Origin: a phage
Reading direction: 5' to 3' (one strand)
DNA length: 44,832 nucleotides
Sequence record: PX055572.1
Positions within the stretch are counted from its first letter, which is position 1. The number at the start of each line of letters is the position of its first letter. A program made the translations under genes and the position numbers. Under the pieces are notes generated by a model that saw only the letters and a program-made list of their open reading frames with translations, was not told where the DNA came from and ran no database searches. Below, in pieces: positions 4,116 to 40,068 of the stretch.

Positions 4116-5159
4116 ATGAGCTTACTGACATCACTAATCAGCCACCAGATTTGGCTGCAACGCACCGCATCTGGTGAAGTGAAAGACCTAGCACCGTTCA
4201 TTCAGGAGATGCGGGACGAAATAAAACGGCAGGTGCTGTTATTCGGTGACGACGGGCGAAGCACTGCCCGACTGAATAAATTGTTACGCGACCTCGAAGA
4301 AGCGCTAACTGGACTTACAGGTGACTGGCAAACAAAGCTGACAGAAGACCTTAAGGAACTGGCGGCGTATGAGGCTGAGTGGAACGTAAAGACACTGACC
4401 GCCAACGTAAACGCGGAATTTGTTACGCCTACCGCTGAACAGGTGTGGGCCGCCGCCGAGTTTCAACCCTTATCGTTGAGCGACAAGCCTGTTGACTTCA
4501 CTAAGCTGATGTCAGGTTGGGGTGAAGCGGAGGTGGCGCGCCTGGTCACCGGCGTTAAGATGGGCTTTGTTCAGGGCAAGACAACACGGCAGATTGTTAA
4601 GAATGTTGTTGGCGCTGGTGGACTAGCCGACATCTCAGAACGTAACGCGACTACGGTAATCCGCACCGCGCTGTCCCACGTATCCAACGAGGCCCGTAAC
4701 GAGACGTACCGCCAGAACGACGACATCATCGAGAAATATGAGTGGGTGTCAACTTTGGACAGCCGTACCAGCGCTATTTGCAGGGCCAGAGACGGAATGA
4801 CGTGGGAAATCGGTAAAGGGCCGACACCCCCAGCCCATCCGAATTGTCGGTCGTGCACGGCTCCGGTAATCAGTTCAGAGTTCGACTTCCTCGATAAAGG
4901 CGCAAAACGGGCGGCTAAGGGCGCTGACGGCGGCACTCAGGTAAGCGCGGACACAACATATTACGAGTTCCTGAAACAACAACCAGCATGGTTTCAGGAC
5001 CAGGCGCTCGGTCCTGTTCGTGGTAAGATTTTCCGTAACAGCGGTATATCGCCGGAAGAGTTTCGCGTAAAATCTGTAGATGGTTTCGGGAATCCGCTCA
5101 CGCTTAAGCAGATGGCGGAACTCGATAAACGTGTTGCTGATTATCTGAAAGGGGATTAA
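4116..5159 (+). CDS. Head morphogenesis / minor head protein (Mu gpF / SPP1 gp7-like)
   Basis: 347 aa, SD caggaggg; C-terminal HPNCRSC motif typical of Mu F-like head morphogenesis proteins (from memory); position after portal. Confidence 0.65.
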   Translation: MSLLTSLISHQIWLQRTASGEVKDLAPFIQEMRDEIKRQVLLFGDDGRSTARLNKLLRDLEEALTGLTGDWQTKLTEDLKELAAYEAEWNVKTLTANVNAEFVTPTAEQVWAAAEFQPLSLSDKPVDFTKLMSGWGEAEVARLVTGVKMGFVQGKTTRQIVKNVVGAGGLADISERNATTVIRTALSHVSNEARNETYRQNDDIIEKYEWVSTLDSRTSAICRARDGMTWEIGKGPTPPAHPNCRSCTAPVISSEFDFLDKGAKRAAKGADGGTQVSADTTYYEFLKQQPAWFQDQALGPVRGKIFRNSGISPEEFRVKSVDGFGNPLTLKQMAELDKRVADYLKGD

Positions 5160-5161
5160 CG

Positions 5162-5620
5162 ATGGGCTTTTTCAAAGTAACTGATGTACCGTCGCGCCGC
5201 GTAGTCCAGTACGCCCGAGTGTCTGGCTCTGGCGAGAACGTGGTGTTTATTGGAGATGAAAGTGTACTCGGTACACCAGTAGACGATATGCCGTTTGCGG
5301 ATAAGACTGGCATCGCACTTCCTGCGGCGGGCATGCTTTACGAGATTCCGTATCTGGCTGATGCTGGCGACGTGTATTTCTCTGCGCAACCGCAGGACGC
5401 TGAACTGGCGGGCGGCAGCGCAACCATCACTGTCGAGGTTAAGGCAGGCAAAGCGCCGTATTCTCTGACCTGGTACAAAGACGGTAAGGAAGTGGTGAAT
5501 GCGCCTGAGGAGGCTCTGTCTCTGACGGTTAATGCGGTCGGCGAATACTTCGTTAAAGTTACTGATGCCGATGGAGTAGAGGCGGTAAGCAAAGCGGCGA
5601 AGGTTACTAAGCCAGAATGA
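5162..5620 (+). CDS. Ig-like domain protein (putative capsid decoration)
   Basis: C-terminal ATITVEVKAGKAPYSLTWYKDG...GEYFVKVTD matches Ig-like fold pattern and is paralogous to ORF 8929..9270; followed by intrinsic terminator. Confidence 0.5.
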   Translation: MGFFKVTDVPSRRVVQYARVSGSGENVVFIGDESVLGTPVDDMPFADKTGIALPAAGMLYEIPYLADAGDVYFSAQPQDAELAGGSATITVEVKAGKAPYSLTWYKDGKEVVNAPEEALSLTVNAVGEYFVKVTDADGVEAVSKAAKVTKPE

Positions 5621-5623
5621 TAA

Positions 5624-5652
5624 AAAGCCCCGCTATGGGGCTTTATTTTTAT
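5624..5652 (+). terminator. Intrinsic terminator after Ig-like gene
   Basis: AAAGCCCC-gctat-GGGGCTTT then ATTTTTAT. Confidence 0.65.
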
Positions 5653-5716
5653 ATGAACATCGCGGTGATAGCCGCAGCCGATACCCACAAAACAAAATAA
5701 AACATCACACTATTTG

Positions 5717-6061
5717 TCATTTGCATTTCTCGTCGTATGTTTGTTGTAACTGCGACAGACGATTACCGGCTGTCATCTCGTCCATAGAAGGCCCAGCGCC
5801 TGTGTCCATAAAGAACAGCGGAACAATCAGGAATGCGCCTGTAACACCGAGTACAACGTTAGTACCTATTTGCTTATTAACACGGTGCGTAGCGTTGGCT
5901 TGAGCTTGTTTTGTCGTGGCGATTCTCGATAGTAACTGATTACATGTTGCCGTTGTATCCCCCGCCTGATAAACCTGTAAAGCTGGGTCTGGCAACGACC
6001 TTACGCAACCACTCAAACAAACGGCTACAACACCCGCTACTGCTAATTTAATATATTTCAT
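5717..6061 (-). CDS. Lipoprotein (candidate superinfection-exclusion / receptor-blocking)
   Basis: Signal peptide MKYIKLAVAGVVAVCLSGC with lipobox LSGC; reverse-strand insert in structural module; translationally coupled to upstream small peptide. Confidence 0.55.
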   Translation of the reverse strand: MKYIKLAVAGVVAVCLSGCVRSLPDPALQVYQAGDTTATCNQLLSRIATTKQAQANATHRVNKQIGTNVVLGVTGAFLIVPLFFMDTGAGPSMDEMTAGNRLSQLQQTYDEKCK

Positions 6062-6159
6062 AGTTCACCATTACCCGTGTCAATTTCACCAATACCACTA
6101 CAAGCCCAAAGAAACATCACCGCATCAACTGCAATTACTACTGAAATAACGACTAACAT
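6058..6159 (-). CDS. Small hydrophobic peptide (33 aa)
   Basis: MLVVISVVIAVDAVMFLWACSGIGEIDTGNGEL; strong SD GAGGAGG 6 nt upstream; stop overlaps lipoprotein start (ATGA); downstream of promoter G. Confidence 0.35.
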   Translation of the reverse strand: MLVVISVVIAVDAVMFLWACSGIGEIDTGNGEL

Positions 6160-6186
6160 GACGGCCTCCTCGTTTCGATGTAATGA

Positions 6187-6215
6187 ATAGTACCCTATTA
6201 TATTGGTGTGTGCAA
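6187..6215 (-). promoter_or_regulatory. Promoter G: TTGCAC-N17-TACTAT with AATAG-N4-CTATT palindrome
   Basis: As transcribed: TTGCAC ACACCAATATAATAGGG TACTAT; ~28 nt upstream of small peptide/lipoprotein operon. Confidence 0.55.
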
Positions 6216-6488
6216 ACTATTTATTTACGTATTCCAGTTATTCCACCGAATTGTAAATGTTGGAATAAACTATTCGAATAGTTGACTTTTCACTGAAAAT
6301 ATGCTAAGCTCCACCTGAGCTTGTGAAGTATGAACAAGCGACCGCGGCGCGGGCAGGTAACGGAGCGGGACGTAAGTCCTGAGTGTAGTTACGCTGACGC
6401 GTTCGGAAGGGCCATACTCTATTGCTTGTGTAAAAAGTAACTGGTTTACTGAGATTACGCCGTTTCTATGTTTAAATGATAAGGACTA

Positions 6489-6520
6489 GCGCCCCGCTTT
6501 ATGGCGGGGCTTTACTTATC
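6489..6520 (+). terminator. Hairpin terminator/attenuator immediately upstream of Rz
   Basis: GCCCCGC-tttatg-GCGGGGC followed by TTTACTTAT; ends 16 nt before Rz ATG. Confidence 0.45.
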
Positions 6521-6535
6521 GAGAAAGGGGGAAAC

Positions 6536-6922
6536 ATGAATCTTAAAGCAACCGTCGTAGCAGGAGCATGTTTCATCATCCTGGCTTACACACACGGCAT
6601 TTATCAGTACCGCAGCGGCTGGAGCGAAGGCCGGGCGAATCTCGTTTCGCAGCAACAGCAGAAAGTACAGGCTGAGTTAGCGAAGAAAACACAACGGCAG
6701 CAGCAGGACGAATCAAAGGCCGCCGCCGCTGACAACGAAGGCAAGACGAAATCAGAGGTGATTACCCGTGAAGTCGTTAAGTACATTAAAACGCCTGGTC
6801 GCAGCGTGTGCACTTTCGACGATGCTCGCGTCCTGCTCAAGTCCCACGCCGTCGCAAACGCTAATTCCATTACCGGATACGACGATGATGCAGCCTCCGT
6901 GCAAACTGGCAGCTCCAAGTAG
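6536..6922 (+). CDS. Rz: i-spanin (Rz-like)
   Basis: N-terminal TM helix ATVVAGACFIILAYTHGIY followed by Q/K/E-rich coiled-coil; SD aagggggaa; contains out-of-frame lipoprotein ORF (Rz1) at its 3' end. Confidence 0.6.
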   Translation: MNLKATVVAGACFIILAYTHGIYQYRSGWSEGRANLVSQQQQKVQAELAKKTQRQQQDESKAAAADNEGKTKSEVITREVVKYIKTPGRSVCTFDDARVLLKSHAVANANSITGYDDDAASVQTGSSK

Positions 6923-7031
6923 CGACGCTGACGAGGATTTAGCTATCGACGTTCAGAACGCCGAATGCGTGCGGCAACTGCGTCTGAAAGTATTCCAGTT
7001 GCAGGATTATGTGAGGAATATTCTGGAATAG
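6768..7031 (+). CDS. Rz1: o-spanin (Rz1-like outer-membrane lipoprotein), GTG start
   Basis: GTG start with SD AGAGG 7 nt upstream; signal peptide with lipobox LASC; Pro-rich mature N-terminus CSSPTPSQTLIPLP; overlaps 3' end of Rz in a different frame and extends 109 nt beyond. Confidence 0.6.
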   Translation: MKSLSTLKRLVAACALSTMLASCSSPTPSQTLIPLPDTTMMQPPCKLAAPSSDADEDLAIDVQNAECVRQLRLKVFQLQDYVRNILE

Positions 7032-7113
7032 TTGCCTTGCATGTTGGAATAATTTATTCTTGACATGTAAATCCGGGTGGCCCGGGTTCCAACGTCCAGG
7101 GGACATACTGACT

Positions 7114-7815
7114 ATGAATCGTTTTTTACGTTATCCGTTCCAGGAAGAAGCTGGGGCAGAAGATAAAGCTGGTGGCGGTGACGCGCCGAAAATGTTCACC
7201 GCTGAAGAAGTTCAGGCGCTGATTGAGAAAGAAGTTGCCGGGCTTAAGGCTAATCAGGAAGCATTGTTGGCGGAGAAGAAAGAAGCCGCTCGCAAAGCAA
7301 AAGAGGCCGAAGAAGAACGGCAGCGCGCGCACCAGGAGGCGTTAAAAGCCGCTGGTAAGATGGATGAGTTCGAAAAGACGATTCGTAGCCAGTATGACCC
7401 GGTGTTAGCCGAGAAAGACGGTCGCATCTCCAGAATGGCAGAGCGTATCCTCGGCAGCGAACGTAAAGCGGTGCTAGGCTCTTTCGCGGGTGACTTTATT
7501 ACCCCAGAAGCAGTGGACATTCTTGCGCCGTTCGTTAAGACTGAGTTCGAAGGCGATGATGTGGTTACTAAGTTTGTTGGTGCAGACGGTAACGTAATCA
7601 CGACTGACCCGGAACAGTTCCGCAAATACCTGCGCGAACACAAGGCGTTTTCGCATTTGATCAAAGCAAATGCAGCTTCCGGCGGCGGGGCTTCCGGTAG
7701 CAAAGGCGGCGGGGCCGCACCAGCGTTTAAAGACATGAGTGAAGCAGAGCGTTTAGCCCTGTATAAATCGAACCCTGCCGAATTTGAACGGCAACTTAAA
7801 GCCCTGAGGAAATAA
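7114..7815 (+). CDS. Scaffolding protein
   Basis: Ala/Glu/Lys-rich helical protein (EKKEAARKAKEAEEERQRAHQEALKAAG) immediately upstream of major capsid gene; first ATG in ORF. Confidence 0.6.
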   Translation: MNRFLRYPFQEEAGAEDKAGGGDAPKMFTAEEVQALIEKEVAGLKANQEALLAEKKEAARKAKEAEEERQRAHQEALKAAGKMDEFEKTIRSQYDPVLAEKDGRISRMAERILGSERKAVLGSFAGDFITPEAVDILAPFVKTEFEGDDVVTKFVGADGNVITTDPEQFRKYLREHKAFSHLIKANAASGGGASGSKGGGAAPAFKDMSEAERLALYKSNPAEFERQLKALRK

Positions 7816-7817
7816 TA

Positions 7818-8867
7818 ATGGCAATTACCACTATCGGCGATATCGTAACTGGCAACATCCCGGTCCTGGCGTCTTATATGACCGAGGACCCGGTAGAAAA
7901 AACCGCGTTCTTCCAGTCTGGTATTCTGACCCCGACCCCGTACGCTGCCGAGATTGCCCGCGGCCCGTCCAACGTCGCTAATATTCCGTTCTGGAAAGCG
8001 ATTGATACCTCTATCGAGCCTAACTACTCGAACGATGTATACCAGGACATCGCCACCCCGCGTAACGTGCAGACCGGTGAGATGATGGCCCGCGTTGCAT
8101 ACCTGAACGAAGGTTTCGGTCAGGCGGATTTGACTGTCGAACTGACCAGCCAGAACCCGCTGCAATCCGTAGCGTCCCGTCTGGATAACTTCTGGCAGCG
8201 CCAGGCACAACGCCGTCTGATTGCTACCGCGCTCGGTCTGTACAACGACAACGTAGCTGCTACCGATGCTTACCACGAGCAGAACGACATGGTTATCGAC
8301 GTGTCTGCTACTCTGGGCTTCGATGCGGGCGCGTTCATCGACGCTACCCAGACTATGGGTGATGCGCTGATGGGCAACGGCGGTGAAGTGCTAGGCGCTA
8401 TCGCGATGCATAGCTTCGTTTATGCGCAGGCCCGTAAGCAGCAGCTTATTGACTTCATCAAAGACGCTGACAACAACACCCTGTTCGCCACCTACCAGGG
8501 CTACCGCGTGATTGTTGACGACAGCATGACCGTAGTCGGCACTGGCCCGACCCGTAAGTTCATCTCCATCATCTTCGGCAACGGCGCTATCGGTTACGGT
8601 GAAGGTTCTCCGTCCAACCCGCTGGAATACGAGCGCGAAGCGTCTCGCGGTAACGGTGGTGGTGTAGAAACCCTGTGGACCCGTAAGACCTGGTTGCTGC
8701 ATCCGTTTGGCTACAGCTTCACCAGCGCGGTAATCACCGGTAACGGCACCGAGACTGTTGCACGCTCTGCTTCCTGGCAGGACCTGGCGAATGCCTCCAA
8801 CTGGAACCGTGTGGTTGAGCGCAAGCATGTGCCGATTGCCTTCCTGGTAACTGGTGTCGGGTCTTAA
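7818..8867 (+). CDS. Major capsid protein
   Basis: 349 aa directly after scaffold gene with SD GAGGAAA; followed by hairpin terminator; size and position. Confidence 0.7.
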   Translation: MAITTIGDIVTGNIPVLASYMTEDPVEKTAFFQSGILTPTPYAAEIARGPSNVANIPFWKAIDTSIEPNYSNDVYQDIATPRNVQTGEMMARVAYLNEGFGQADLTVELTSQNPLQSVASRLDNFWQRQAQRRLIATALGLYNDNVAATDAYHEQNDMVIDVSATLGFDAGAFIDATQTMGDALMGNGGEVLGAIAMHSFVYAQARKQQLIDFIKDADNNTLFATYQGYRVIVDDSMTVVGTGPTRKFISIIFGNGAIGYGEGSPSNPLEYEREASRGNGGGVETLWTRKTWLLHPFGYSFTSAVITGNGTETVARSASWQDLANASNWNRVVERKHVPIAFLVTGVGS

Positions 8868-8882
8868 GGTTAAGCTATAATC

Positions 8883-8910
8883 GAGAGGGACTTCGGTCCC
8901 TCTTTTCATT
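8883..8910 (+). terminator. Intrinsic terminator/attenuator after major capsid gene
   Basis: GAGGGAC-ttcg-GTCCCTC then TTTTCATTT. Confidence 0.6.
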
Positions 8911-8928
8911 TACTAAGAGGATTCCTAA

Positions 8929-9270
8929 ATGGCAGACGTATTGAAGCGACGCACCACCGGCGTCTCCGCTGACGCCCCGGGCGCTAAGATTGACATGGAG
9001 ACTATTTCTCCTGCGTCTTTCTCTTCCGCGCTGGCGGCTACTACCGCAGTGACCACAGGTGAAACTATGACACTGACCGTAACCGTAGCGGGCGGTCTGG
9101 AGCCATATTCTTACCAGTGGTATAAGAATAACAACGCCATCGCCGGGGCTACCGCAGCTACCTACGCTAAAGCGTCGACCACTGCCGCCGACTCCGGTAC
9201 GTATAAAGTGGTTGTTCACGATGCGTATGGTAATATTATCTCCAGCAGCACTGTAGCAACTGTGTCTTAA
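8929..9270 (+). CDS. Ig-like domain protein (putative decoration protein)
   Basis: MTLTVTVAGGLEPYSYQWYKNN...DSGTYKVVVHD; paralogous to C-terminus of ORF 5162..5620. Confidence 0.5.
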   Translation: MADVLKRRTTGVSADAPGAKIDMETISPASFSSALAATTAVTTGETMTLTVTVAGGLEPYSYQWYKNNNAIAGATAATYAKASTTAADSGTYKVVVHDAYGNIISSSTVATVS

Positions 9271-9305
9271 TACAGCGGCCCTTCGGGGCCGTAATAAGGA
9301 AAGGT

Positions 9306-9486
9306 CATGGCAGATAATTATGTAATCCGCGAAAAGTACACCCACGTTGATGTTGTTGACGGTCAGGTGATGCCTGTTCGCGGTGCGGTAGAAGCGGAAG
9401 AACTGGTTGCAACACAACCGGACAACGAAGAAGCGCACAACAACGGTGGTGGTACTAAGCGACGTCGCCGTAAGTCAGAGGAATAA
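9306..9486 (+). pseudogene. Small ORF interrupted by apparent +1 frame break at a G-run (9358-9362)
   Basis: ATG 9306 with SD AAGGAAAGG gives MADNYVIREKYTHVDVVDG then continues in frame only 1 nt downstream (...VMPVRGAVEAEELVATQPDNEEAHNNGGGTKRRRRKSEE, stop 9484-9486). Confidence 0.25.
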
Positions 9487-9489
9487 TTT

Positions 9490-10002
9490 ATGCCGCTAAT
9501 CGTGGAAACTGGGGAAATCGTCCCGAATGCCGACAGTTACATTAGTCTGGCTGACGCCCGCGCGTTAGCGGCTAATTATGGTCTGGAGTTGCCCGCGGAT
9601 GATACCGCCGCAGAGGTGGCCTTGCGCAACGGTGCTACTTATGTCGGGCTTGCAGAACCGCAGATGTGCGGGCGTCGCGTATCCGCTGAACAGTCTCTTG
9701 CGTATCCACGCACGGGTGTAACGTTGAATGGTTTCCCAGTAGCTAACAATGCCATTCCGAAACAGGTAATTCTCGCGCAGGTAATCGCCGCTGTTACGTA
9801 TGGAGCTGGCACTGATGTTCGGGCTAACTCCGATGGACGTTCCGTGCAGACCGAGCGTGTAGAGGGTGCGGTAACAGTTACCTACTTCAACAACGGCAAC
9901 AGCGGAGCCACAACCGCGATTACCGCCGCTGACGACGCCTTACGCCCGTTACTGTGTGGTGGTCTTAACAACGGCTTCTCATTTAATGTGTACCGGGGTT
10001 AA
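9490..10002 (+). CDS. Head-tail connector / structural protein
   Basis: 170-aa ORF in neck region between capsid and tail genes; position only. Confidence 0.4.
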   Translation: MPLIVETGEIVPNADSYISLADARALAANYGLELPADDTAAEVALRNGATYVGLAEPQMCGRRVSAEQSLAYPRTGVTLNGFPVANNAIPKQVILAQVIAAVTYGAGTDVRANSDGRSVQTERVEGAVTVTYFNNGNSGATTAITAADDALRPLLCGGLNNGFSFNVYRG

Positions 10003-10004
10003 AA

Positions 10005-10619
10005 ATGGCGAAGACTAAATCAGAGATGTTTACTCTTATCGGCGCAAACCTCCCCGATAACACTACCGGGCTTATTACCCCAGCAGCGTTGCGCGAGGTA
10101 ATGACCCAGATGGCTGACTCACCTATTTACGCCACTCCAGGTGTTAAAGAGGTTGAAGTTCTCCGCGCTGCGTCGACAGTAGCGCAAGCGCCTACCGCAG
10201 TAGATACGGCGTTGCAGGTATCGTTCGGCTCTGCTCAGGGTAGTGCATCTGACCCGGTAATGATTAATGCTGCGGGGCTGGTTACATTCAACACCGCGGG
10301 TAACTATGCCGTTCGCATCAAGTTACAGGCCGGTCGCTCCGGCGCTAGCGGAACGTCTATCCTGTTGTCGCGTATCCGCATTAACGGCGCTCAGTACGGC
10401 TCACCAGCAGCTACGAAACTTGTTAGCTCGGAAACCACCATCCCTATTGAATCCCGTGTAGTGATTAACCCAACCGCCGGGCAAACATTCGCCGTTCAGA
10501 TTATGCGAGATAGCGCCGGGACTAACTTCGGAGGCGTATACCCGCAGGTGGCTACTGTAACTGCATGGGGCACGGCACCGTCCGCGCTACTGGTTATTTC
10601 GAGACTGGAGGCTGCCTGA
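10005..10619 (+). CDS. Structural (neck/head completion) protein
   Basis: 204 aa, tightly packed in structural operon; position only. Confidence 0.35.
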   Translation: MAKTKSEMFTLIGANLPDNTTGLITPAALREVMTQMADSPIYATPGVKEVEVLRAASTVAQAPTAVDTALQVSFGSAQGSASDPVMINAAGLVTFNTAGNYAVRIKLQAGRSGASGTSILLSRIRINGAQYGSPAATKLVSSETTIPIESRVVINPTAGQTFAVQIMRDSAGTNFGGVYPQVATVTAWGTAPSALLVISRLEAA

Positions 10620-10978
10620 TGAGCACTGCTTTCAGTAAACGTATGCAAGGCGTGGGTACACGCCTGCTAACCAAATTCGGTAGCACGGTATCTCTGATTC
10701 GCGCTGGCTCGAAAGTGTGGGATGAAGTTCTCGGTGAGTACGTCTGGTCTGCGGACGAAGTGTTGCCGTTGAAGGCCGTTCCGGTTCCTGTTAATGCGGG
10801 TCTGGTGAACGGTACGACGATTCAGGCTGGTGACATGATTGTTAAAGCCGATTACAGCGTCGTTCCTAAGATGGAAGACAAAGTGCAATTCGGCGGCGAG
10901 CAATGGTCCGTCGTAGCCATTGAGAAGAAGGTGGTTAACGATGATGTTGTGGCCTACTTTATTCAGGTGAGAAAATGA
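10619..10978 (+). CDS. Head-tail joining protein
   Basis: ATG 10619 overlapping upstream stop (ATGA), SD GGAGG; 119 aa; position. Confidence 0.4.
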   Translation: MSTAFSKRMQGVGTRLLTKFGSTVSLIRAGSKVWDEVLGEYVWSADEVLPLKAVPVPVNAGLVNGTTIQAGDMIVKADYSVVPKMEDKVQFGGEQWSVVAIEKKVVNDDVVAYFIQVRK

Positions 10979-11370
10979 GTTTCGCGCTGGACGTCTCTAA
11001 GTTCGTGGAAAAGGCGAAGAAGAACCCTGAGAAGGTGATGCGTCAGGTGTCTATCAAGCTGTTTTCCGCTATTATAAAGGCGAGTCCGGTAGATACTGGT
11101 CGGTTTCGCATGAACTGGATGGCATCTGGCGGTACTCCTGCTTCCGGGATTACGGATGCTACGGATAAATCAGGAAACACAGCAACCGGAAACGCTACAA
11201 GTTTCGTGCTGAAAGCCACCGACTGGCATGAGTTCACGCTGACAAATAACCTGCCGTATGCACAACGGCTGGAGTATGGCTGGTCGCAACAGGCCCCGCA
11301 AGGATTCGTCAGGACTAACGTGTCCCGCTTCCAGCAACTCATTAACGAAGAAGCTAGCAAGGTGAGATGA
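10975..11370 (+). CDS. Tail completion / neck protein (HK97 gp10-like)
   Basis: 131 aa with DTGRFRMNW segment resembling HK97 gp10 family motif (from memory); position before major tail gene. Confidence 0.4.
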   Translation: MSFALDVSKFVEKAKKNPEKVMRQVSIKLFSAIIKASPVDTGRFRMNWMASGGTPASGITDATDKSGNTATGNATSFVLKATDWHEFTLTNNLPYAQRLEYGWSQQAPQGFVRTNVSRFQQLINEEASKVR

Positions 11371-11783
11371 TGGGCTACTTTGAGGACTTAACAAAAGCGT
11401 TTGATGTGCCGCTGGTAGCCTTCGGAACCACCAACGGCATCAAGGTAGCGCTTGAAAACATCGACGCGCCGACGTCAACAGATACGCCGTATCTGGCAAG
11501 TTACATGTTGCTGGCGGATACCGAGCAGGCTGACTTATTCTTCACGGAACAACGCGCCGGTGTCTATCAGATAGACATTAACTACGCATCGGTGAAAGGT
11601 AGCGCGCCAATCAATAAAATGGCAGACTTACTTAACACGGCGTTTAAATCAGGTAAGTCATTTTCACGTAACGACATCTGCGCCGAGGTTCAATCGGTTA
11701 GCCTGGGGCCGCTGATTGTAGAAAACGGATGGGCCAAAAGACCATTGTCAATTAACTTTATTGCATTCACCAAGAGGCTGTGA
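11367..11783 (+). CDS. Tail terminator / completion protein
   Basis: 138-aa ORF immediately upstream of major tail protein; position only. Confidence 0.35.
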   Translation: MMGYFEDLTKAFDVPLVAFGTTNGIKVALENIDAPTSTDTPYLASYMLLADTEQADLFFTEQRAGVYQIDINYASVKGSAPINKMADLLNTAFKSGKSFSRNDICAEVQSVSLGPLIVENGWAKRPLSINFIAFTKRL

Positions 11784-11785
11784 AT

Positions 11786-12952
11786 ATGGCTACAACTCCT
11801 TTTAAGGGCGCGAATACCGCGCAATTCTATGTGGCGGAAACTACCCCGGGCGTAACACCGGCTAACCCGGTATGGTCGCCACTGCGTAACACAGGCGGCG
11901 TTCCTGCCATTACCCGTGACACGCTGACCTCCAACGAACTGGACGGCAGCCGCGAAACTACATCCATCCGCACCGGTAACAAGCAGGTTAGCGGTGAATA
12001 TGCTATTGAGCTTAGCTCGAAAAGCCAGGATGACTGGCTAGCCGGGGCTTTAGGCTCTACGTGGCAGGCTGGCGTATCTCTGTCAGGGCTATCGATTACC
12101 GTCGCACCGGCTGGCAAGACGTTCACACGTGCCACCGGCAGCTTTATCACTGACGGAGTTGGGGTAGGCGACCTGATTGCGTTTACCGATTTAACTGGCG
12201 ATAATGCAAAACCATTTATTGTTACTGCAGTAACGGCTACGGTTGTTACTGGTGCAGGCATCCAACACACCCTGACCACCGAGACAAAAACTAGTAAGGC
12301 TAAAACTGGCGACACGCTGGAAACCGGTAATACGTGTAAGACGTTCTCTATCCTTACCTGGTACAAAGGCCAGTGCGGCGGTACTTACGCGTACACGTTA
12401 ACCAAAGGCGTGGAAGTTTCTGGTTTTACCATCGAACAGGCTGTTAACGCGATGGTAACTGGCAGCTTCCCATTCATCGGTCGCAGTCAGGAGATTCTCA
12501 CCACGCCGCCGAGGGGTTCCAACTTCTCATCTGTTACTTTTGGTGATGAGCCGTTTTCTTCGGTTGACGTTTCCGTGTTCGATGGTTCTACGCCGTTGCG
12601 ATGCGACAGTCTGACTATCACCAACGATAACAGCGCGTCCGCGCAGTTCGAACTTGGTAACACTAACGTAGCGTTTGTTGAGCGTAGCCGCGCGGCTAAC
12701 ACTTTCTCCATCTCCGGCAAGCTGTACGACATGGCGATGATTCAGAAGTTTATCAACGAACAGCAGGTAGAGATTAACTCTATTCTGGCGGGGGTAAACG
12801 GGGCTATGTCTTTCAGTTTGAAACGCGCAGAGCTTACAGCAGTAACACCAGAGATTAGCGGACCAGAGTCAATCACTCAGTCCATTGAGGGGCAGGCCAC
12901 CGGCAACCAGTACCAGTCGTCTATCGTAATTCAACGTATCACCTACGCATAA
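11786..12952 (+). CDS. Major tail protein
   Basis: ATG 11786 with SD AAGAGG 8 nt upstream (ORF track starts at GTG 11780); 389 aa Thr/Gly/Ser-rich beta-type protein; followed by strong bidirectional terminator. Confidence 0.55.
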   Translation: MATTPFKGANTAQFYVAETTPGVTPANPVWSPLRNTGGVPAITRDTLTSNELDGSRETTSIRTGNKQVSGEYAIELSSKSQDDWLAGALGSTWQAGVSLSGLSITVAPAGKTFTRATGSFITDGVGVGDLIAFTDLTGDNAKPFIVTAVTATVVTGAGIQHTLTTETKTSKAKTGDTLETGNTCKTFSILTWYKGQCGGTYAYTLTKGVEVSGFTIEQAVNAMVTGSFPFIGRSQEILTTPPRGSNFSSVTFGDEPFSSVDVSVFDGSTPLRCDSLTITNDNSASAQFELGNTNVAFVERSRAANTFSISGKLYDMAMIQKFINEQQVEINSILAGVNGAMSFSLKRAELTAVTPEISGPESITQSIEGQATGNQYQSSIVIQRITYA

Positions 12953-12954
12953 AA

Positions 12955-12982
12955 CTAAGGCCCCTTTCGGGGCCTTTTTCTT
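12955..12982. terminator. Bidirectional terminator between major tail gene and reverse cassette
   Basis: AGGCCCC-tttc-GGGGCCT then TTTTCTT; A-rich on the other side. Confidence 0.65.
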
Positions 12983-13535
12983 ACAAACCTAATTTTAAAG
13001 CAATGTCTATAACGTTCGATTTAACGTCACCCGGTATGATGTAGGTGTCGTAATCTTTTACACCACTAACATCATACAGATAGCCACGGCTATCGCCGAT
13101 GAACGTATAGCCGTCACGATGGAGGCGAACGATTTGCACGTCATGCCCTGCGGCGACGATAGGGGCAACTTCACTGGCGAATCCACCGTCGGACACTACA
13201 AAAACTTCGTCGCCGTCAGGCAAGTTTTCAGCAAGATACTTACCGAAATAATCATCGCCGAATACCGGTTTAATGAATTGCTCAGAAATGGCAATCATTA
13301 ACTGGCGGCGGGACAACCCATTAAGAAAACCCTCGGGTTTTTCTTTCCGCGCCCGGTCGTCGTAGCCGTCGAGAAATTCGTGGTAAGCATCCTGGCCTAA
13401 CGCTGCCAAAGCAATATTGAACATTGGATTCTTGAAACTGGTAGTTCCTTTCGCAAAGCCCATTTCTACCAGCGCCATAGCAAGCGTGTCTTTCCCGCAA
13501 CCCGCAGGGCCATTAAGAATAATTACCTTAGCCAC
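12981..13535 (-). CDS. P-loop nucleotide kinase (dNMP kinase / polynucleotide kinase-like)
   Basis: Walker A GPAGCGKDT at N-terminus; 184 aa; adjacent to HAD phosphatase in reverse-strand cassette. Confidence 0.6.
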   Translation of the reverse strand: MAKVIILNGPAGCGKDTLAMALVEMGFAKGTTSFKNPMFNIALAALGQDAYHEFLDGYDDRARKEKPEGFLNGLSRRQLMIAISEQFIKPVFGDDYFGKYLAENLPDGDEVFVVSDGGFASEVAPIVAAGHDVQIVRLHRDGYTFIGDSRGYLYDVSGVKDYDTYIIPGDVKSNVIDIALKLGL

Positions 13536-14023
13536 TATTTATCGCTCCCGTGTGGTTTTAAGTGTGTAGAGTTCCCGTTACAGTCGTATTCGGTAACTGC
13601 GTGTGCGGTTATGCCGAGGTCACGGAAATGCTTTATTACCGCTGGAGAGTCGTCGAACGCACACAAGATTCTTTCCAGTCCGAAAGCACGCAACACCTCT
13701 TCTTTAATTACGATGTCTTTTCTGTTGTCGTGTTTGCTGCGCATGATTAGCGTGTCAAACCTAACGTTATTCTCTCGTAACCATTCGCGAGTCTCCTCCT
13801 CAGCGTCATCACTTCGCCCGGTAAGGATAATTATAGTAAGTCCGGAATGCCACAGTACGCTACACAAATGGATATTGTCGTATATCGGAGCGTCATCTTT
13901 GCAGGCCATGTTAAATGGCTTCCACGCCCACGTTTCTCCGTAGTTATCTTTTGGTAACAGGTGTAAGCGATGGGTACCGTCGGCCAATGTCCCGTCTAAA
14001 TCGAAAATTACAATATCTTTCAT
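13535..14023 (-). CDS. HAD-superfamily phosphatase (nucleotidase / 3'-phosphatase-like)
   Basis: N-terminal catalytic motif DLDGTL (DxDxT), 162 aa; translationally coupled to kinase gene. Confidence 0.6.
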   Translation of the reverse strand: MKDIVIFDLDGTLADGTHRLHLLPKDNYGETWAWKPFNMACKDDAPIYDNIHLCSVLWHSGLTIIILTGRSDDAEEETREWLRENNVRFDTLIMRSKHDNRKDIVIKEEVLRAFGLERILCAFDDSPAVIKHFRDLGITAHAVTEYDCNGNSTHLKPHGSDK

Positions 14024-15150
14024 CCCAGCATCTCCGGTGAAATAGTTAAACGTGCGACCTCGCCATATTCGGCGCTATAAGTAATTACATTTGCACTGCG
14101 GCCCGACATCCATCCGCCGCGAGAGGCGTAGGCGTCTTTAGCCGCTAAGGTGCGGTGTTGCTCAACAATCATGTTACGGCTTTCTACAATCTTCTGGTGG
14201 TGCAGATGGCCTACGTGGGCGTAGCTGTAAACACTCTCGCCGAACGCTTTACGGAACTTGGCAATCATAACCGGTTCGATAGCGTCGAATCGTGCTTTAT
14301 GCCCGTGATGGAAGAACAGCGTCGTTTTGCCGTGTCGCACCATCTTGTAAACATCCGGCGACGTATCGACGAATACACGAGGCTCGTTGTCGTACAGTGT
14401 GCTGAACATCTCCGCCAGCCAAATCATCCCGGATTCGTCGTGGTTCCCCTGAACTATAAGCAAGCGAACAGTTTTATGCTTAACCAGAGCCATATCAACA
14501 ACACGGCGGACCATGCGAATCATGTAGCGGACAAGTTTCTGGTAACGCGTGTCGGCGTCAAGGACATGACCACTAGCCGGTGTAACGGCGTCAAGACTAT
14601 CGAAGTGAGCTAAGTCGCCAAGAAGATTAATAACCCCCGTACCTGCATCCGGTGCTTTCTGAAACGCAGCATCAAACCAACGAGAGAATAAGTCCTCCGC
14701 GATTTTCATATCCCAGTCGTCGCCGCTCTCGTCAGCCCAGGCTAACATACCGAGATGGAAATCAGATACCGTGTAAAGATTGAGTAGTTTATCGTCACGT
14801 TTGGCTCGTGCCGGTTTAACAGGCGCAACGGGCGTAATCTCTGACTTCATGCCCTCTATTACGGCTTTCATCAATTCAACCTGACGTTCGGCATCAGCGT
14901 CGGTCTTAACCCATTGCAACTTAGTGTTGCCGAACTCGTCCACCAGGGACGACGTTCCTTTAATCTTGTAACCGTCTGGTACAAGGTGACTAACGTCGCG
15001 CCCGTGGCCTACGCCTTTCTTAGCCAGCTTCGCTTTACGGATACGAATAACGCGGTCTGAGATTCCGTATTTACGGGCGATATCGATATTCTTCATCCCG
15101 GCGTTCAATTCTTCCTGCAACTGTTCGTCGGTTATTTTCTTCTGGGCCAT
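14020..15150 (-). CDS. Calcineurin-like metallophosphoesterase with N-terminal HTH domain
   Basis: Motifs DFH, GDLAHFD, GNHDE, HHGH, GHLHH; N-terminal 60 aa HTH-like (IDIARKYGISDRVIRIRKAK); start ATG 15150 with SD GAGGAA 7 nt upstream (ORF track extends further 5'). Confidence 0.65.
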   Translation of the reverse strand: MAQKKITDEQLQEELNAGMKNIDIARKYGISDRVIRIRKAKLAKKGVGHGRDVSHLVPDGYKIKGTSSLVDEFGNTKLQWVKTDADAERQVELMKAVIEGMKSEITPVAPVKPARAKRDDKLLNLYTVSDFHLGMLAWADESGDDWDMKIAEDLFSRWFDAAFQKAPDAGTGVINLLGDLAHFDSLDAVTPASGHVLDADTRYQKLVRYMIRMVRRVVDMALVKHKTVRLLIVQGNHDESGMIWLAEMFSTLYDNEPRVFVDTSPDVYKMVRHGKTTLFFHHGHKARFDAIEPVMIAKFRKAFGESVYSYAHVGHLHHQKIVESRNMIVEQHRTLAAKDAYASRGGWMSGRSANVITYSAEYGEVARLTISPEMLG

Positions 15151-15188
15151 GCTTACTTCCTCGTGTTTAGGATTTGTCTTATGGTAGC

Positions 15189-15380
15189 CTACTTCTCTTT
15201 CACGTTCGAGTTGCAAGCCCAGATTAAAATGAATACCCACGGCAACAGAATCCACCCGAGAAATAAGTTAGCCATGAATATCGCCAGCTTTGCTTTATGG
15301 TTACGCATATGTGCCACCAAAAACGGGATAAAATAAACGGCTACAAAAATAATTAAGAAGAACATAGTGATACCGGTCAT
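15189..15380 (-). CDS. Small two-TM membrane protein, superinfection-immunity (Imm)-like
   Basis: MTGITMFFLIIFVAVYFIPFLVAHMRNHKAKLAIFMANLFLGWILLPWVFILIWA; start at internal ATG with SD AGGAG 7 nt upstream; LLGW...WxxxLxWA pattern resembles superinfection-immunity family (from memory). Confidence 0.45.
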   Translation of the reverse strand: MTGITMFFLIIFVAVYFIPFLVAHMRNHKAKLAIFMANLFLGWILLPWVFILIWACNSNVKEK

Positions 15381-15422
15381 AACATAACTCCTGATTTGAG
15401 ATAACATCGTTGGTGTAAGTGA

Positions 15423-15451
15423 ATAGTACGCTATTATATTGGGGAGTGCAA
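15423..15451 (-). promoter_or_regulatory. Promoter H: TTGCAC-N17-TACTAT with AATAG-N4-CTATT palindrome
   Basis: As transcribed: TTGCAC TCCCCAATATAATAGCG TACTAT; ~40 nt upstream of Imm-like gene. Confidence 0.55.
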
Positions 15452-35188: not shown

Positions 35189-35216
35189 ATCTGCCCCTCT
35201 CGTTTGGTATGGGCTA

Positions 35217-35245
35217 ACTATAATAGCGAACTATTCACATGTCAA
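35217..35245 (-). promoter_or_regulatory. Promoter C: TTGACA-N17-TATAGT with palindrome in spacer
   Basis: As transcribed: TTGACA TGTGAATAGTTCGCTAT TATAGT; in divergent region facing Cro-like gene. Confidence 0.6.
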
Positions 35246-35289
35246 TGGGCTTTTCTAAAATAATTAATATGGTACTATTCACATATCAA
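35234..35289 (+). promoter_or_regulatory. Candidate rightward promoter and operator-like half-palindrome for Cro-like gene
   Basis: TTCACA (35234-35239)-N16-TAAAAT (35256-35261) overlapping promoter C; downstream element GGTACTATTCACATATCAA (35271-35289) resembles the palindrome. Confidence 0.35.
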
Positions 35290-35309: not shown

Positions 35310-35525
35310 ATGCAACCATCTGAACTAGGCACCCGTGTAGAACAACGCCGTAAAGAACTCGGCATCTCCCAGCGCCGTTTGGCGGTCCTGACCGGCGTTT
35401 CCCAGGGCGCAATTAACCAGCTGGCTCTCGGTGTAACTCAGGACGTCCGCCCGGCAACGTTGTTTAAACTGGCGGAAGTGCTGGAAGTAGACGCTAAGTG
35501 GCTGGCGTTCGGTGAAGGGGCTTGA
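35310..35525 (+). CDS. HTH XRE-family transcriptional regulator (Cro-like)
   Basis: ISQRRLAVLTGVSQGAINQL helix-turn-helix; 71 aa; SD AAGGAG; divergent from replication operon; followed by terminator. Confidence 0.65.
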   Translation: MQPSELGTRVEQRRKELGISQRRLAVLTGVSQGAINQLALGVTQDVRPATLFKLAEVLEVDAKWLAFGEGA

Positions 35526-38912: not shown

Positions 38913-38941
38913 TTGCACACCCCAACATAATAGGTTACTAT
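38913..38941 (+). promoter_or_regulatory. Promoter D: TTGCAC-N17-TACTAT with AATAG-N4-CTATT palindrome
   Basis: TTGCAC ACCCCAACATAATAGGT TACTAT; 35 nt upstream of ATG 38976. Confidence 0.55.
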
Positions 38942-38975
38942 TCACTTATAGAAACGAGACAGAGGAGTGAGGGTT

Positions 38976-40039: not shown

Positions 40040-40068
40040 TTGCACACTGGGATAGAATAGGCTACTAT
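40040..40068 (+). promoter_or_regulatory. Promoter E: TTGCAC-N17-TACTAT with AATAG-N4-CTATT palindrome
   Basis: TTGCAC ACTGGGATAGAATAGGC TACTAT; 32 nt upstream of ATG 40100. Confidence 0.55.

Follow-up and report, generated by a model that had tools for sequence, protein, structure and literature searches.

Exclusion proteins decide which phages co-infect or succeed one another in a cell, and only few families of exclusion lipoproteins are known, namely Cor, Llp, Ltp and TraT. The genes for Cor and Llp adjoin receptor-binding genes, and in the F plasmid the genes traS and traT follow traG. On this plasmid, TraT is the surface exclusion lipoprotein and TraS mediates entry exclusion by recognising the TraG protein of the donor (PMC7555446). 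SieA of phage P22 spans the inner membrane several times, has a cytoplasmic FxRYPxEAxxFNK motif and blocks the conduit of gp16/gp20 through which the DNA is delivered (PMC10883804). Its gene sits between P22 genes 16 and 9, and only a third of the P22-like phages have it (Leavitt et al. 2024, PMC10883804). Here we analyzed a minus-strand cassette at positions 5624-6215 of sequence record PX055572.1, a phage DNA of 44,832 nucleotides (nt) that is called the window in the following and is the near-complete genome of a Kagunavirus infecting E. coli. The cassette, which encodes a lipoprotein and two hydrophobic peptides, is a self-contained moron in a hypervariable slot between a Hoc-like gene and the Rz/Rz1 genes. 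Its lipoprotein belongs to a widespread family of stand-alone envelope lipoproteins of diderm bacteria that has no Pfam entry, and the mobile-element branch of this family lies repeatedly in immunity or exclusion regions. We tentatively suggest, with somewhat less than even confidence, that the lipoprotein cassette provides exclusion acting at the level of the envelope.

The cassette and its two flanks comprise the following features, in which ORF stands for open reading frame and aa for amino acids:
5624-6215, minus strand: the whole cassette unit with promoter-like element, three coupled ORFs and terminator
6184-6215, minus strand: conserved 32-nt promoter-like element, TTGCACACACCAATATAATAGGGTACTATTCA
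6165-6171, minus strand: Shine-Dalgarno (SD) sequence GAGGAGG, read from the sequence, 5 nt before the ATG of ORF1
6058-6159, minus strand: ORF1 from the ORF list, a peptide of 33 aa, MLVVISVVIAVDAVMFLWACSGIGEIDTGNGEL
5717-6061, minus strand: ORF2, a prolipoprotein of 114 aa, MKYIKLAVAGVVAVCLSGC..., the ATG of which overlaps the ORF1 stop codon as ATGA
5649-5726, minus strand: ORF3 from the ORF list, a hydrophobic peptide of 25 aa, MQMTNSVMFYFVLWVSAAAITAMFI
5624-5644, both strands: bidirectional intrinsic terminator hairpin from a terminator scan, AAAGCCCCGCTATGGGGCTTT, with T-runs on both strands
4116-5620, plus strand: Mu-F-like head morphogenesis gene and immunoglobulin (Ig)-domain, Hoc-like decoration gene, forming one flank
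6476-7031, plus strand: Rz/Rz1 spanin pair, forming the other flank and followed by the scaffold and major capsid genes

The initial annotation had placed an operon at 5717-6215, consisting of a 33-aa hydrophobic peptide with a strong SD and a lipoprotein with the lipobox LSGC behind a promoter almost identical to one at 15.4 kb. Each of these items is found at the positions given there and the genes look real, however, the true unit extends from 5624 to 6215, since a third ORF and the terminator had been left out. The latter ends the cassette on the minus strand as well as the Hoc-like gene on the plus strand. The sequence itself is not new, because the cassette genes are already annotated as hypothetical in Golestan-like genomes. 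What the present analysis adds is the recognition of a third gene and of the slot as modular, a description of the lipoprotein family by size, motif and predicted architecture, and the finding that members of this family recur in the exclusion regions of mobile elements that are unrelated to each other.

The modular character of the cassette is evident from the comparison with related phages. A 1.2-kb stretch around it matches best Escherichia phage VB_EcoS-Golestan (Kagunavirus golestan; genome of 44,829 bp) with 96% identity over the full query. The same stretch matches 181 Guernseyvirinae phage records, among which the flanks are conserved and the insert is present in 11 only. Among deposited phages, 11 Kagunavirus records encode the lipoprotein with at least 99% identity, and in each of them ORF1 accompanies the cassette. 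In other relatives the slot holds different cargo between flanks that are more than 92% identical (Bas70, K1H, L014, EM1). The metagenomic Kagunavirus contig L014 has an 82%-identical lipoprotein (76% DNA identity) in the same slot together with ORF3, and it lacks ORF1, the promoter being followed by a separate SD and the GTG start of the lipoprotein. The K1H slot consists of promoter, SD, a 33-aa ORF1 homologue and terminator, with no other cargo. An unrelated acidic soluble protein of 67 aa fills the slot, between the same promoter and terminator, in Bas70 and some 30 further phage records. The BASEL Kagunaviruses examined have different cargo in the slot, as read directly for Bas70 and by tblastn for Bas71, 72 and 75. 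Promoter-like element and an equivalent terminator hairpin are retained in Bas70, K1H and L014 whatever the cargo is.

Hence, the unit has the organization of a moron, with its own promoter-like element and terminator and with cargo that is present, absent or replaced at a junction where relatives have directly neighbouring genes. The slot gives the impression of a general accessory-gene hotspot. Since the peptide occurs in K1H without the lipoprotein and the lipoprotein in L014 without the peptide, ORF1 on the one hand and the lipoprotein plus ORF3 on the other represent separable modules, which does not agree with the former view of peptide and lipoprotein as one module. At the DNA level, neither the cassette nor the homologous gene from Citrobacter had a match in 5,426 complete E. 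coli genomes. A search for structured RNA in or near the cassette with Rfam at E<=1 returned only a chance-level hit to Phe_leader (21 bits compared with a gathering score of 55). Regarding the alternative cargos, the 67-aa protein of Bas70 (L002 1751-1954) corresponds to phrog_27256 of unknown function, which occurs in 33 records including Salmonella and Klebsiella phages, and the slot region of phage EM1 contains a gene annotated as Dam-type methylase.

All three ORFs look like genuine genes when their codon-level variation is considered. ORF3 may start at its second ATG (5718-5720), which overlaps the lipoprotein stop codon as ATGA and gives a peptide of 23 aa. The divergent L014 cassette has retained it as MQMTNSLGFYAVLWVTAAVITGMFI, and the comparison of both versions yields 13.7 synonymous against 8.3 nonsynonymous differences (proportions pS 0.91 and pN 0.14, binomial P=1e-5). 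Within the phage collection, its presence is confined to the 11 records with the lipoprotein. By these sequence comparisons ORF3 is a real gene under purifying selection that travels with the lipoprotein. ORF1 has a hydrophobic N-terminal segment of the length of a single membrane pass and an acidic C-terminal tail (…GEIDTGNGEL). Its K1H homologue, MMVAISFVLLVNLGLFVWAVSGVEDADSGNGEL, is 52% identical, of equal length and has the same GNGEL end, with an excess of synonymous changes (pS 0.72, pN 0.30, binomial P=0.009). Residues 17-20 of ORF1 (6097-6108) read L-W-A-C, resembling a lipobox behind the hydrophobic stretch. ORF1 is nevertheless probably not a lipoprotein, because a basic n-region is missing, the W at position -2 is atypical and the Cys is replaced by V in K1H. 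ORF2 shows a ratio of nonsynonymous to synonymous changes (dN/dS) of 0.10 relative to the 82%-identical L014 variant, based on Nei-Gojobori counts.

ORF2 carries a lipoprotein signal, MKYIKLAVAGVVAVCL-S-G-C19, with signal peptide 1-18, which has a positive n-region and a hydrophobic core, and the LSGC lipobox ending in Cys19, in agreement with the lipobox pattern [LVI][ASTVI][GAS]C. All 88 aligned homologues share the lipobox Cys. At +2, directly behind the Cys to be lipidated, the family has A, G or V and never D, with V in ORF2. According to the Lol sorting rule of enterobacteria, lipoproteins without Asp at +2 go to the outer membrane, and sorting to this membrane is therefore predicted. 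The protein belongs to phrog_13472 of unknown function (1.2e-44, residues 3-114 aligned with profile positions 1-113 of 113). Scans of all three ORFs with Pfam-A, NCBIfam, PADLOC and PHROGs gave no further match, with only sub-threshold noise in NCBIfam, and TraT, Lambda_Bor and other named envelope lipoprotein families were not matched at the curated Pfam and NCBIfam thresholds. When ORF2 and 21 family members were compared with Pfam-A, the best value was E=0.048 (T2SSF, below the cutoff), and ten long members with C-terminal extensions displayed a single SHOCT tail in Pfam. Likewise, the family profile found nothing below E=0.6 among the PDB sequences, and none of ORF1, ORF2 and ORF3 matched Imm_superinfect (PF14373).

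The family is large. A profile search over 1.84 billion cluster representatives (50%-identity clusters) retrieved 1,464 clusters at E<=1e-3, of which 713 also passed E<=1e-10, and a second indexed search returned 579 90%-identity clusters, the names of which, where given, read 'hypothetical' or 'lipoprotein'. In the alignment of the 20 relatives from the first search, C19, D35, C40, N68, the block LGVTGxFLIVPLFFMD, R101, L105 and C113 are invariant. ORF2 itself carries the conserved D35, C40, NxxLGVTGxFLIVPxFFMD, R101 and C113, and these columns are invariant or nearly so. AlphaFold2, run with the 88-sequence alignment, modelled ORF2 with a mean predicted local distance difference test (pLDDT) score of 85.4 as a signal helix, an extended linker (18-39), a helix (40-78), a short helix (80-84) and a final helix (90-112). 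ORF2 is thus predicted to form a long alpha-hairpin, in which the conserved hydrophobic block N68-D86 makes the turn. Cys113 is missing in only 2 of the 88 sequences, both of which also lack Cys40. Because the two residues are lost together, a disulfide between C40 and C113 is probable, which would leave the C-terminus in the periplasm. The hydrophobic segment (68-85) is internal and marginal as a membrane-spanning helix, its best 19-mer reaching +2.4 on our own summed, position-independent scale.

These features bear on whether ORF2 takes part in lysis, either as a unimolecular-spanin-like protein or as a modulator of spanins or holin. The gene lies directly beside Rz/Rz1, and an N-terminal lipobox, an internal hydrophobic segment and a coiled hairpin are reminiscent of membrane-fusion-type proteins. 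Unimolecular spanins of the T1 gp11 type, however, combine an outer-membrane lipoprotein signal with a C-terminal transmembrane anchor and are expressed late within the lysis cassette. In ORF2, the joint loss of Cys40 and Cys113 implies a periplasmic C-terminus, hence the hydrophobic segment is not such an anchor. Moreover, the gene is on the opposite strand under its own promoter-like element of a class common to DNA-metabolism genes, and the phage already has Rz/Rz1. The lipoprotein is optional cargo missing in most Kagunaviruses, which retain Rz/Rz1, and its homologues are also found in settings not connected with cell lysis, namely on a likely integrative and conjugative element (ICE), plasmids and chromosomes. 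A lysis-related role is accordingly very unlikely. An even fainter chance is given to a virion structural protein. This reading would be in line with the position among head genes and with GenBank, where the identical protein gp035 of phage HSE2 is labelled 'putative structural protein'. The structural status in the HSE2 paper is by annotation only, and a text search of it gave no mention of sodium dodecyl sulfate polyacrylamide gel electrophoresis or mass spectrometry (PMC5967307). The lipoprotein signal peptide, the opposite strand, the separate promoter and terminator, and the absence from most relatives also speak against a structural protein, and ORF2 was rejected as virion component.

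The promoter-like element connects the cassette with other parts of the genome. Its copy at 15420-15451 (minus strand), which the initial annotation had called almost identical, agrees at 29 of 32 positions, and the gene behind it (15189-15407, minus strand), then called Imm-like, is a true member of Imm_superinfect (PF14373, 50.6 bits compared with a cutoff of 27.9; phrog_1039, 3e-24). A third copy at 38913-38944 (plus strand) has one mismatch to the pattern of the element, and a fourth full copy occurs at 40040-40068 (plus strand), whereas 100 dinucleotide shuffles gave zero matches. The element at 6184-6215 can be read as TTGCAC-N17-TACTAT with TATAAT inside the spacer, which matches 7 of 12 consensus positions, and the 3' 20 nt were labelled 'phage promoter' by PHIRE in fBC-Eco01. 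A simple sigma-70 scan did not call it, and it is therefore described as a conserved promoter-like element with an unmapped start site.

This promoter class is general, with at least four copies in the sequence that also precede DNA-metabolism genes and small ORFs, in what is probably an early region. Amid plus-strand ORFs, the minus-strand run 12981-15451 starts behind its promoter with Imm_superinfect, followed by genes for a DNA repair exonuclease, a polynucleotide kinase and a deoxynucleoside monophosphate (dNMP) kinase. The small ORFs behind the copies at 38.9 and 40.0 kb (region 38.9-40.4 kb) match only PHROGs of unknown function and, weakly, a Gp5.9-like RecBCD inhibitor. Because the class precedes these groups of genes, the cassette is probably transcribed early as well, presumably by the host RNA polymerase. 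For the same reason, the shared promoter indicates at most co-timing and no dedicated exclusion regulon. The earlier proposal of a coordinated exclusion function of two membrane-targeted cassettes is thus not supported, as the class also drives the exonuclease/polynucleotide kinase/dNMP-kinase operon and the small ORFs, and in Bas70 an unrelated soluble protein. Finally, the promoter core recurs twice in partial form, as ATAATAGCGAACTATTCAC and TAATATGGTACTATTCAC, at 35215-35278 (plus strand) just upstream of a 71-aa helix-turn-helix (HTH) regulator (35310-35525, plus strand) from PHROG transcriptional repressor families. Spacer and -10 core of the class might be the operator of this regulator, giving autoregulation or shut-off.

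Several genomic neighbourhoods of the homologues speak for exclusion or immunity. In two P22-like prophage lineages, one from Citrobacter (P0007) and a second one (P0004), the order is gp7-gp20-gp16-[lipoprotein]-mnt/arc/ant-tailspike. Both homologues thereby occupy the sieA position between genes 16 and 9, which is not the case for the window gene, and no SieA-like protein was seen in these P22-like prophages. A protein identical to P0007 is also encoded on a resistance plasmid contig. In Seleniivibrio, the homologue directly follows traH-traG_N on what is a likely ICE, and is succeeded by SNF2/DUF4391/methylase or OLD-type, defence-like cargo. In Alcaligenes lambdoid prophages (P0247) it either separates the N antiterminator from CI/Cro or is a neighbour of Acb2/Tad1 and an S24 repressor. 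Two further members, P0251 and P0011, adjoin integrases, P0011 being located between int and alpA. The P22 sieA region, lambdoid immunity regions, the position after traG, the proximity of integrases and the plasmid location all favour an exclusion function. In addition, ten records of T7-like Aeromonas phages (lytic Autographiviridae) encode a protein of about 30% identity among small hypothetical genes near the primase gene. As a separate observation, the Citrobacter P22-like prophage has, downstream of mnt in the usual sieA region, a gene for a 149-aa protein without Pfam match (L004 6375-6824), with a Gly/Ser-rich N-terminal part, a coiled-coil-like mid-region and a single C-terminal hydrophobic segment. 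In view of this single segment and the absence of the motif it was rejected as SieA, and it may be another uncharacterised prophage moron.

If ORF2 excludes phages, the question arises at which step. The initial annotation had named Llp and Cor as models, in which an outer-membrane lipoprotein inactivates the protein receptor of its own phage and blocks later irreversible adsorption. A small lipoprotein without Asp at +2, predicted in the outer membrane and encoded by a phage behind a promoter class that also drives DNA-metabolism genes, would suit such receptor masking. However, the Cor PHROG (phrog_1119) was matched only at E=0.29 and 12.6 bits over residues 1-37, i.e. the signal peptide, and no named exclusion family was matched in Pfam, NCBIfam or PADLOC. 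The gene is situated between the Hoc-like head gene and the spanins, away from receptor-binding genes. Moreover, published work on Kagunaviruses stresses glycan receptors, describing these phages as glycan-dependent with a protein receptor not defined (PMC11990801). The family is found across many diderm phyla, which argues against masking of one particular receptor, and its carriers, among them P22-like prophages, T7-like Aeromonas phages, a likely ICE and plasmids in distant phyla, cannot share one. The conserved part is also a hydrophobic tip and not a variable binding surface. Receptor masking is hence improbable, and the analogy proposed before is not supported, nor are the single module and the coordination. 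The more general idea of a superinfection-exclusion candidate is supported in part, with genes that look real, a predicted targeting to the envelope and a promoter-like element that also stands ahead of a true Imm_superinfect gene, and the neighbourhoods of the homologues agree with it.

Within the exclusion reading we prefer a block of DNA delivery after adsorption, similar to SieA or Ltp, because there is no homology to Cor or Llp, the carriers cannot have one receptor in common and the conserved feature is a generic hydrophobic tip. In such a scenario, the cassette would be expressed early from the promoter class of the Imm_superinfect/DNA-metabolism operon and the small-ORF cluster. ORF2 would be exported, lipid-modified at Cys19, as suggested by the lipobox, and sorted in enterobacteria to the periplasmic face of the outer membrane. 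There it is predicted to fold into the long alpha-hairpin, probably stapled by Cys40-Cys113, with the near-invariant tip NxxLGVTGAFLIVPLFFMD at the far end. This tip would hinder a DNA-delivery step in the periplasm or at the membrane, e.g. the conduit formed by tape-measure or ejection proteins of a second phage, and the surface receptor would stay unmasked. ORF3, which co-travels in both known Kagunavirus variants, is a probable membrane partner of the lipoprotein. ORF1 would be older, independent cargo of the slot, and may here pass ribosomes to the lipoprotein start via the ATGA overlap. A broader and rather speculative proposal, to which we give only a small chance, is that the hairpin-lipoprotein family represents a general, hitherto unrecognised entry-exclusion device across virulent phages, prophages, satellites or islands, ICEs and plasmids of diderms, in which the invariant hydrophobic tip of the disulfide-stapled hairpin would jam membrane-inserting DNA conduits in the periplasm, be they channels of phage tape-measure or ejection proteins or conjugative type IV secretion systems, with the 23-25-aa peptide as the Kagunavirus partner.

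Several points weigh against exclusion. Kagunaviruses appear to be virulent, and exclusion would therefore pay off only during the latent period or in a carrier state. Within this broad family, many members are chromosomal and off mobile elements; for example, P0216 is found between nusG and rplK, P0020 among regulators and transporters, and a Photorhabdus copy between a symporter and MlaA/FadL. A distant member on about 40 Rhizobium replicons lies inside a two-partner secretion operon TpsB-lipoprotein-x-x-TpsA, the protein match having been obtained in about 40 replicons and the operon itself read in one. In that one (L089, Rhizobium pRLG202, 5224-14339), a 155-aa member is located between a ShlB/FhaC-type TpsB and a TPS-domain haemagglutinin-repeat exoprotein, with two hypothetical genes. 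This arrangement recalls the small lipoprotein BcpO of the contact-dependent inhibition (CDI) loci of Burkholderia. A Pfam census of 145 neighbour ORFs at 55 bacterial loci, which took in the first half of the neighbouring ORFs, found no dominant partner and mostly housekeeping genes. Furthermore, the contexts looked up are biased to proteins closely related to that of the phage, structural comparison of the generic hairpin gave no informative match, the source names of all family members are 'hypothetical' or 'lipoprotein', and promoter activity as well as timing are predictions from the DNA.

Hence, ORF2 could instead be a general envelope-modifying or fitness lipoprotein that is not aimed at incoming DNA. 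Its family might then serve housekeeping or the stress response in the outer membrane or periplasm, for instance in membrane or lipid homeostasis or as a helper of Omp85/TpsB-type transporters, and phages and other mobile elements would carry it as a moron that stabilises or remodels the envelope in infection or aids the carrier host as lambda Bor does. The many chromosomal copies in ordinary non-mobile contexts, the fixed place in the Rhizobium TpsB...TpsA operon, the vicinity of MlaA/FadL in Photorhabdus and a conservation that peaks in a generic hydrophobic motif and not in a variable specificity region are consistent with this explanation. On the other hand, no partner is conserved family-wide, and mobile elements carry the overwhelming share of the proteins most similar to that of the phage, specifically in their immunity or exclusion regions. 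The patchy distribution, with 55 hits only in a strict-motif scan that covered 185,579 species with one genome each, also fits better to an accessory than to a core gene. We consider a general envelope lipoprotein the main rival, only somewhat less likely, and favour, still tentatively, exclusion at the envelope.

Two additional observations were made around the locus. The stretch 6216-6535, about 300 nt from the cassette promoter to the spanin start, is highly conserved in all Kagunaviruses regardless of the slot cargo. It contains a 36-aa ORF (6330-6440, plus strand) that is annotated in some records and a strong plus-strand terminator hairpin at 6491-6510, and the i-spanin starts in homologues with MNLKATVV (6536), compared with the ATG at 6476 in the ORF list. 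The stretch could be a small independent transcription unit or RNA; Rfam gave no match for it. Furthermore, a 44,086-bp circular 'plasmid' from a human blood isolate of E. coli (L083; CP088689.1, pC16EC0033-2) has the size of a whole phage genome, and the 3.3 kb examined have Kagunavirus-like content, with a spanin-sized gene, the ORF2 lipoprotein, an Ig-domain protein and a minor capsid protein. Such a record suggests that the phage was in a carrier state or pseudolysogeny, or that its DNA was co-assembled with that of the host. Exclusion functions would count more in such a carrier state.

The question is also of applied interest, as Kagunaviruses are being characterised against urinary-tract and multidrug-resistant E. 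coli and exclusion is relevant for the composition of phage cocktails as well as for the competition between mobile elements. The collections provide natural controls, since Bas70-type Kagunaviruses have other cargo and K1H has ORF1 only. If the exclusion function is true, it would be structurally distinct from the known exclusion systems of this kind; if not, a first phenotype for a widespread diderm envelope lipoprotein family would still result.

When the ORF2 family is compared with the described systems, it is unrelated to Cor, Llp, Ltp and TraT, large, without Pfam entry and has an unusually invariant motif. Like Cor (phi80/T1/N15/HK022) and Llp (T5), ORF2 is a small phage lipoprotein predicted in the outer membrane and presumed to keep phages out. 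However, there is no sequence relationship, the gene is not beside receptor-binding genes, nothing points to FhuA or another protein receptor, and the predicted alpha-hairpin with its hydrophobic tip as well as the spread across many phyla and types of mobile elements are different. TraS and TraT share with the Seleniivibrio homologue the position after traH-traG, and TraT is also an outer-membrane lipoprotein; yet TraT is surface-exposed, has 244 aa, and the ORF2 family has no Pfam TraT match. In relation to lambdoid morons such as HK97 gp15 and lambda Bor, the cassette has in common the autonomous promoter-gene-terminator unit between genes that are adjacent in relatives and the varying cargo among collinear genomes, whereas its carrier is a virulent-looking siphovirus, its promoter belongs to a phage-wide class also ahead of DNA-metabolism genes, and it has three coupled small ORFs.

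T4 uses two early exclusion proteins, Imm and Sp, acting at the membrane and in the periplasm. By analogy, the true Imm_superinfect gene and the lipoprotein cassette behind the same promoter class could form a probably early two-component arrangement in the envelope, although ORF2 is unrelated to Sp, the promoter class is general and exclusion by either Kagunavirus protein is putative. SieA resides in the same genomic region of P22-like prophages as members of the ORF2 family, and the post-adsorption block of DNA delivery proposed here is the one shown for SieA. The ORF2 family differs from it by a single lipobox signal, one marginal hydrophobic segment, the absence of the SieA motif and the lack of homology. 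Finally, Ltp of the Streptococcus phage TP-J34 acts in a Gram-positive host, has a different fold and displays no sequence similarity to ORF2 in the Pfam and PHROG scans. Nevertheless Ltp, which is lipid-anchored outside the cytoplasmic membrane, binds the tape measure protein and blocks DNA injection, would be the closest mechanistic analogue of the action that we propose for ORF2.

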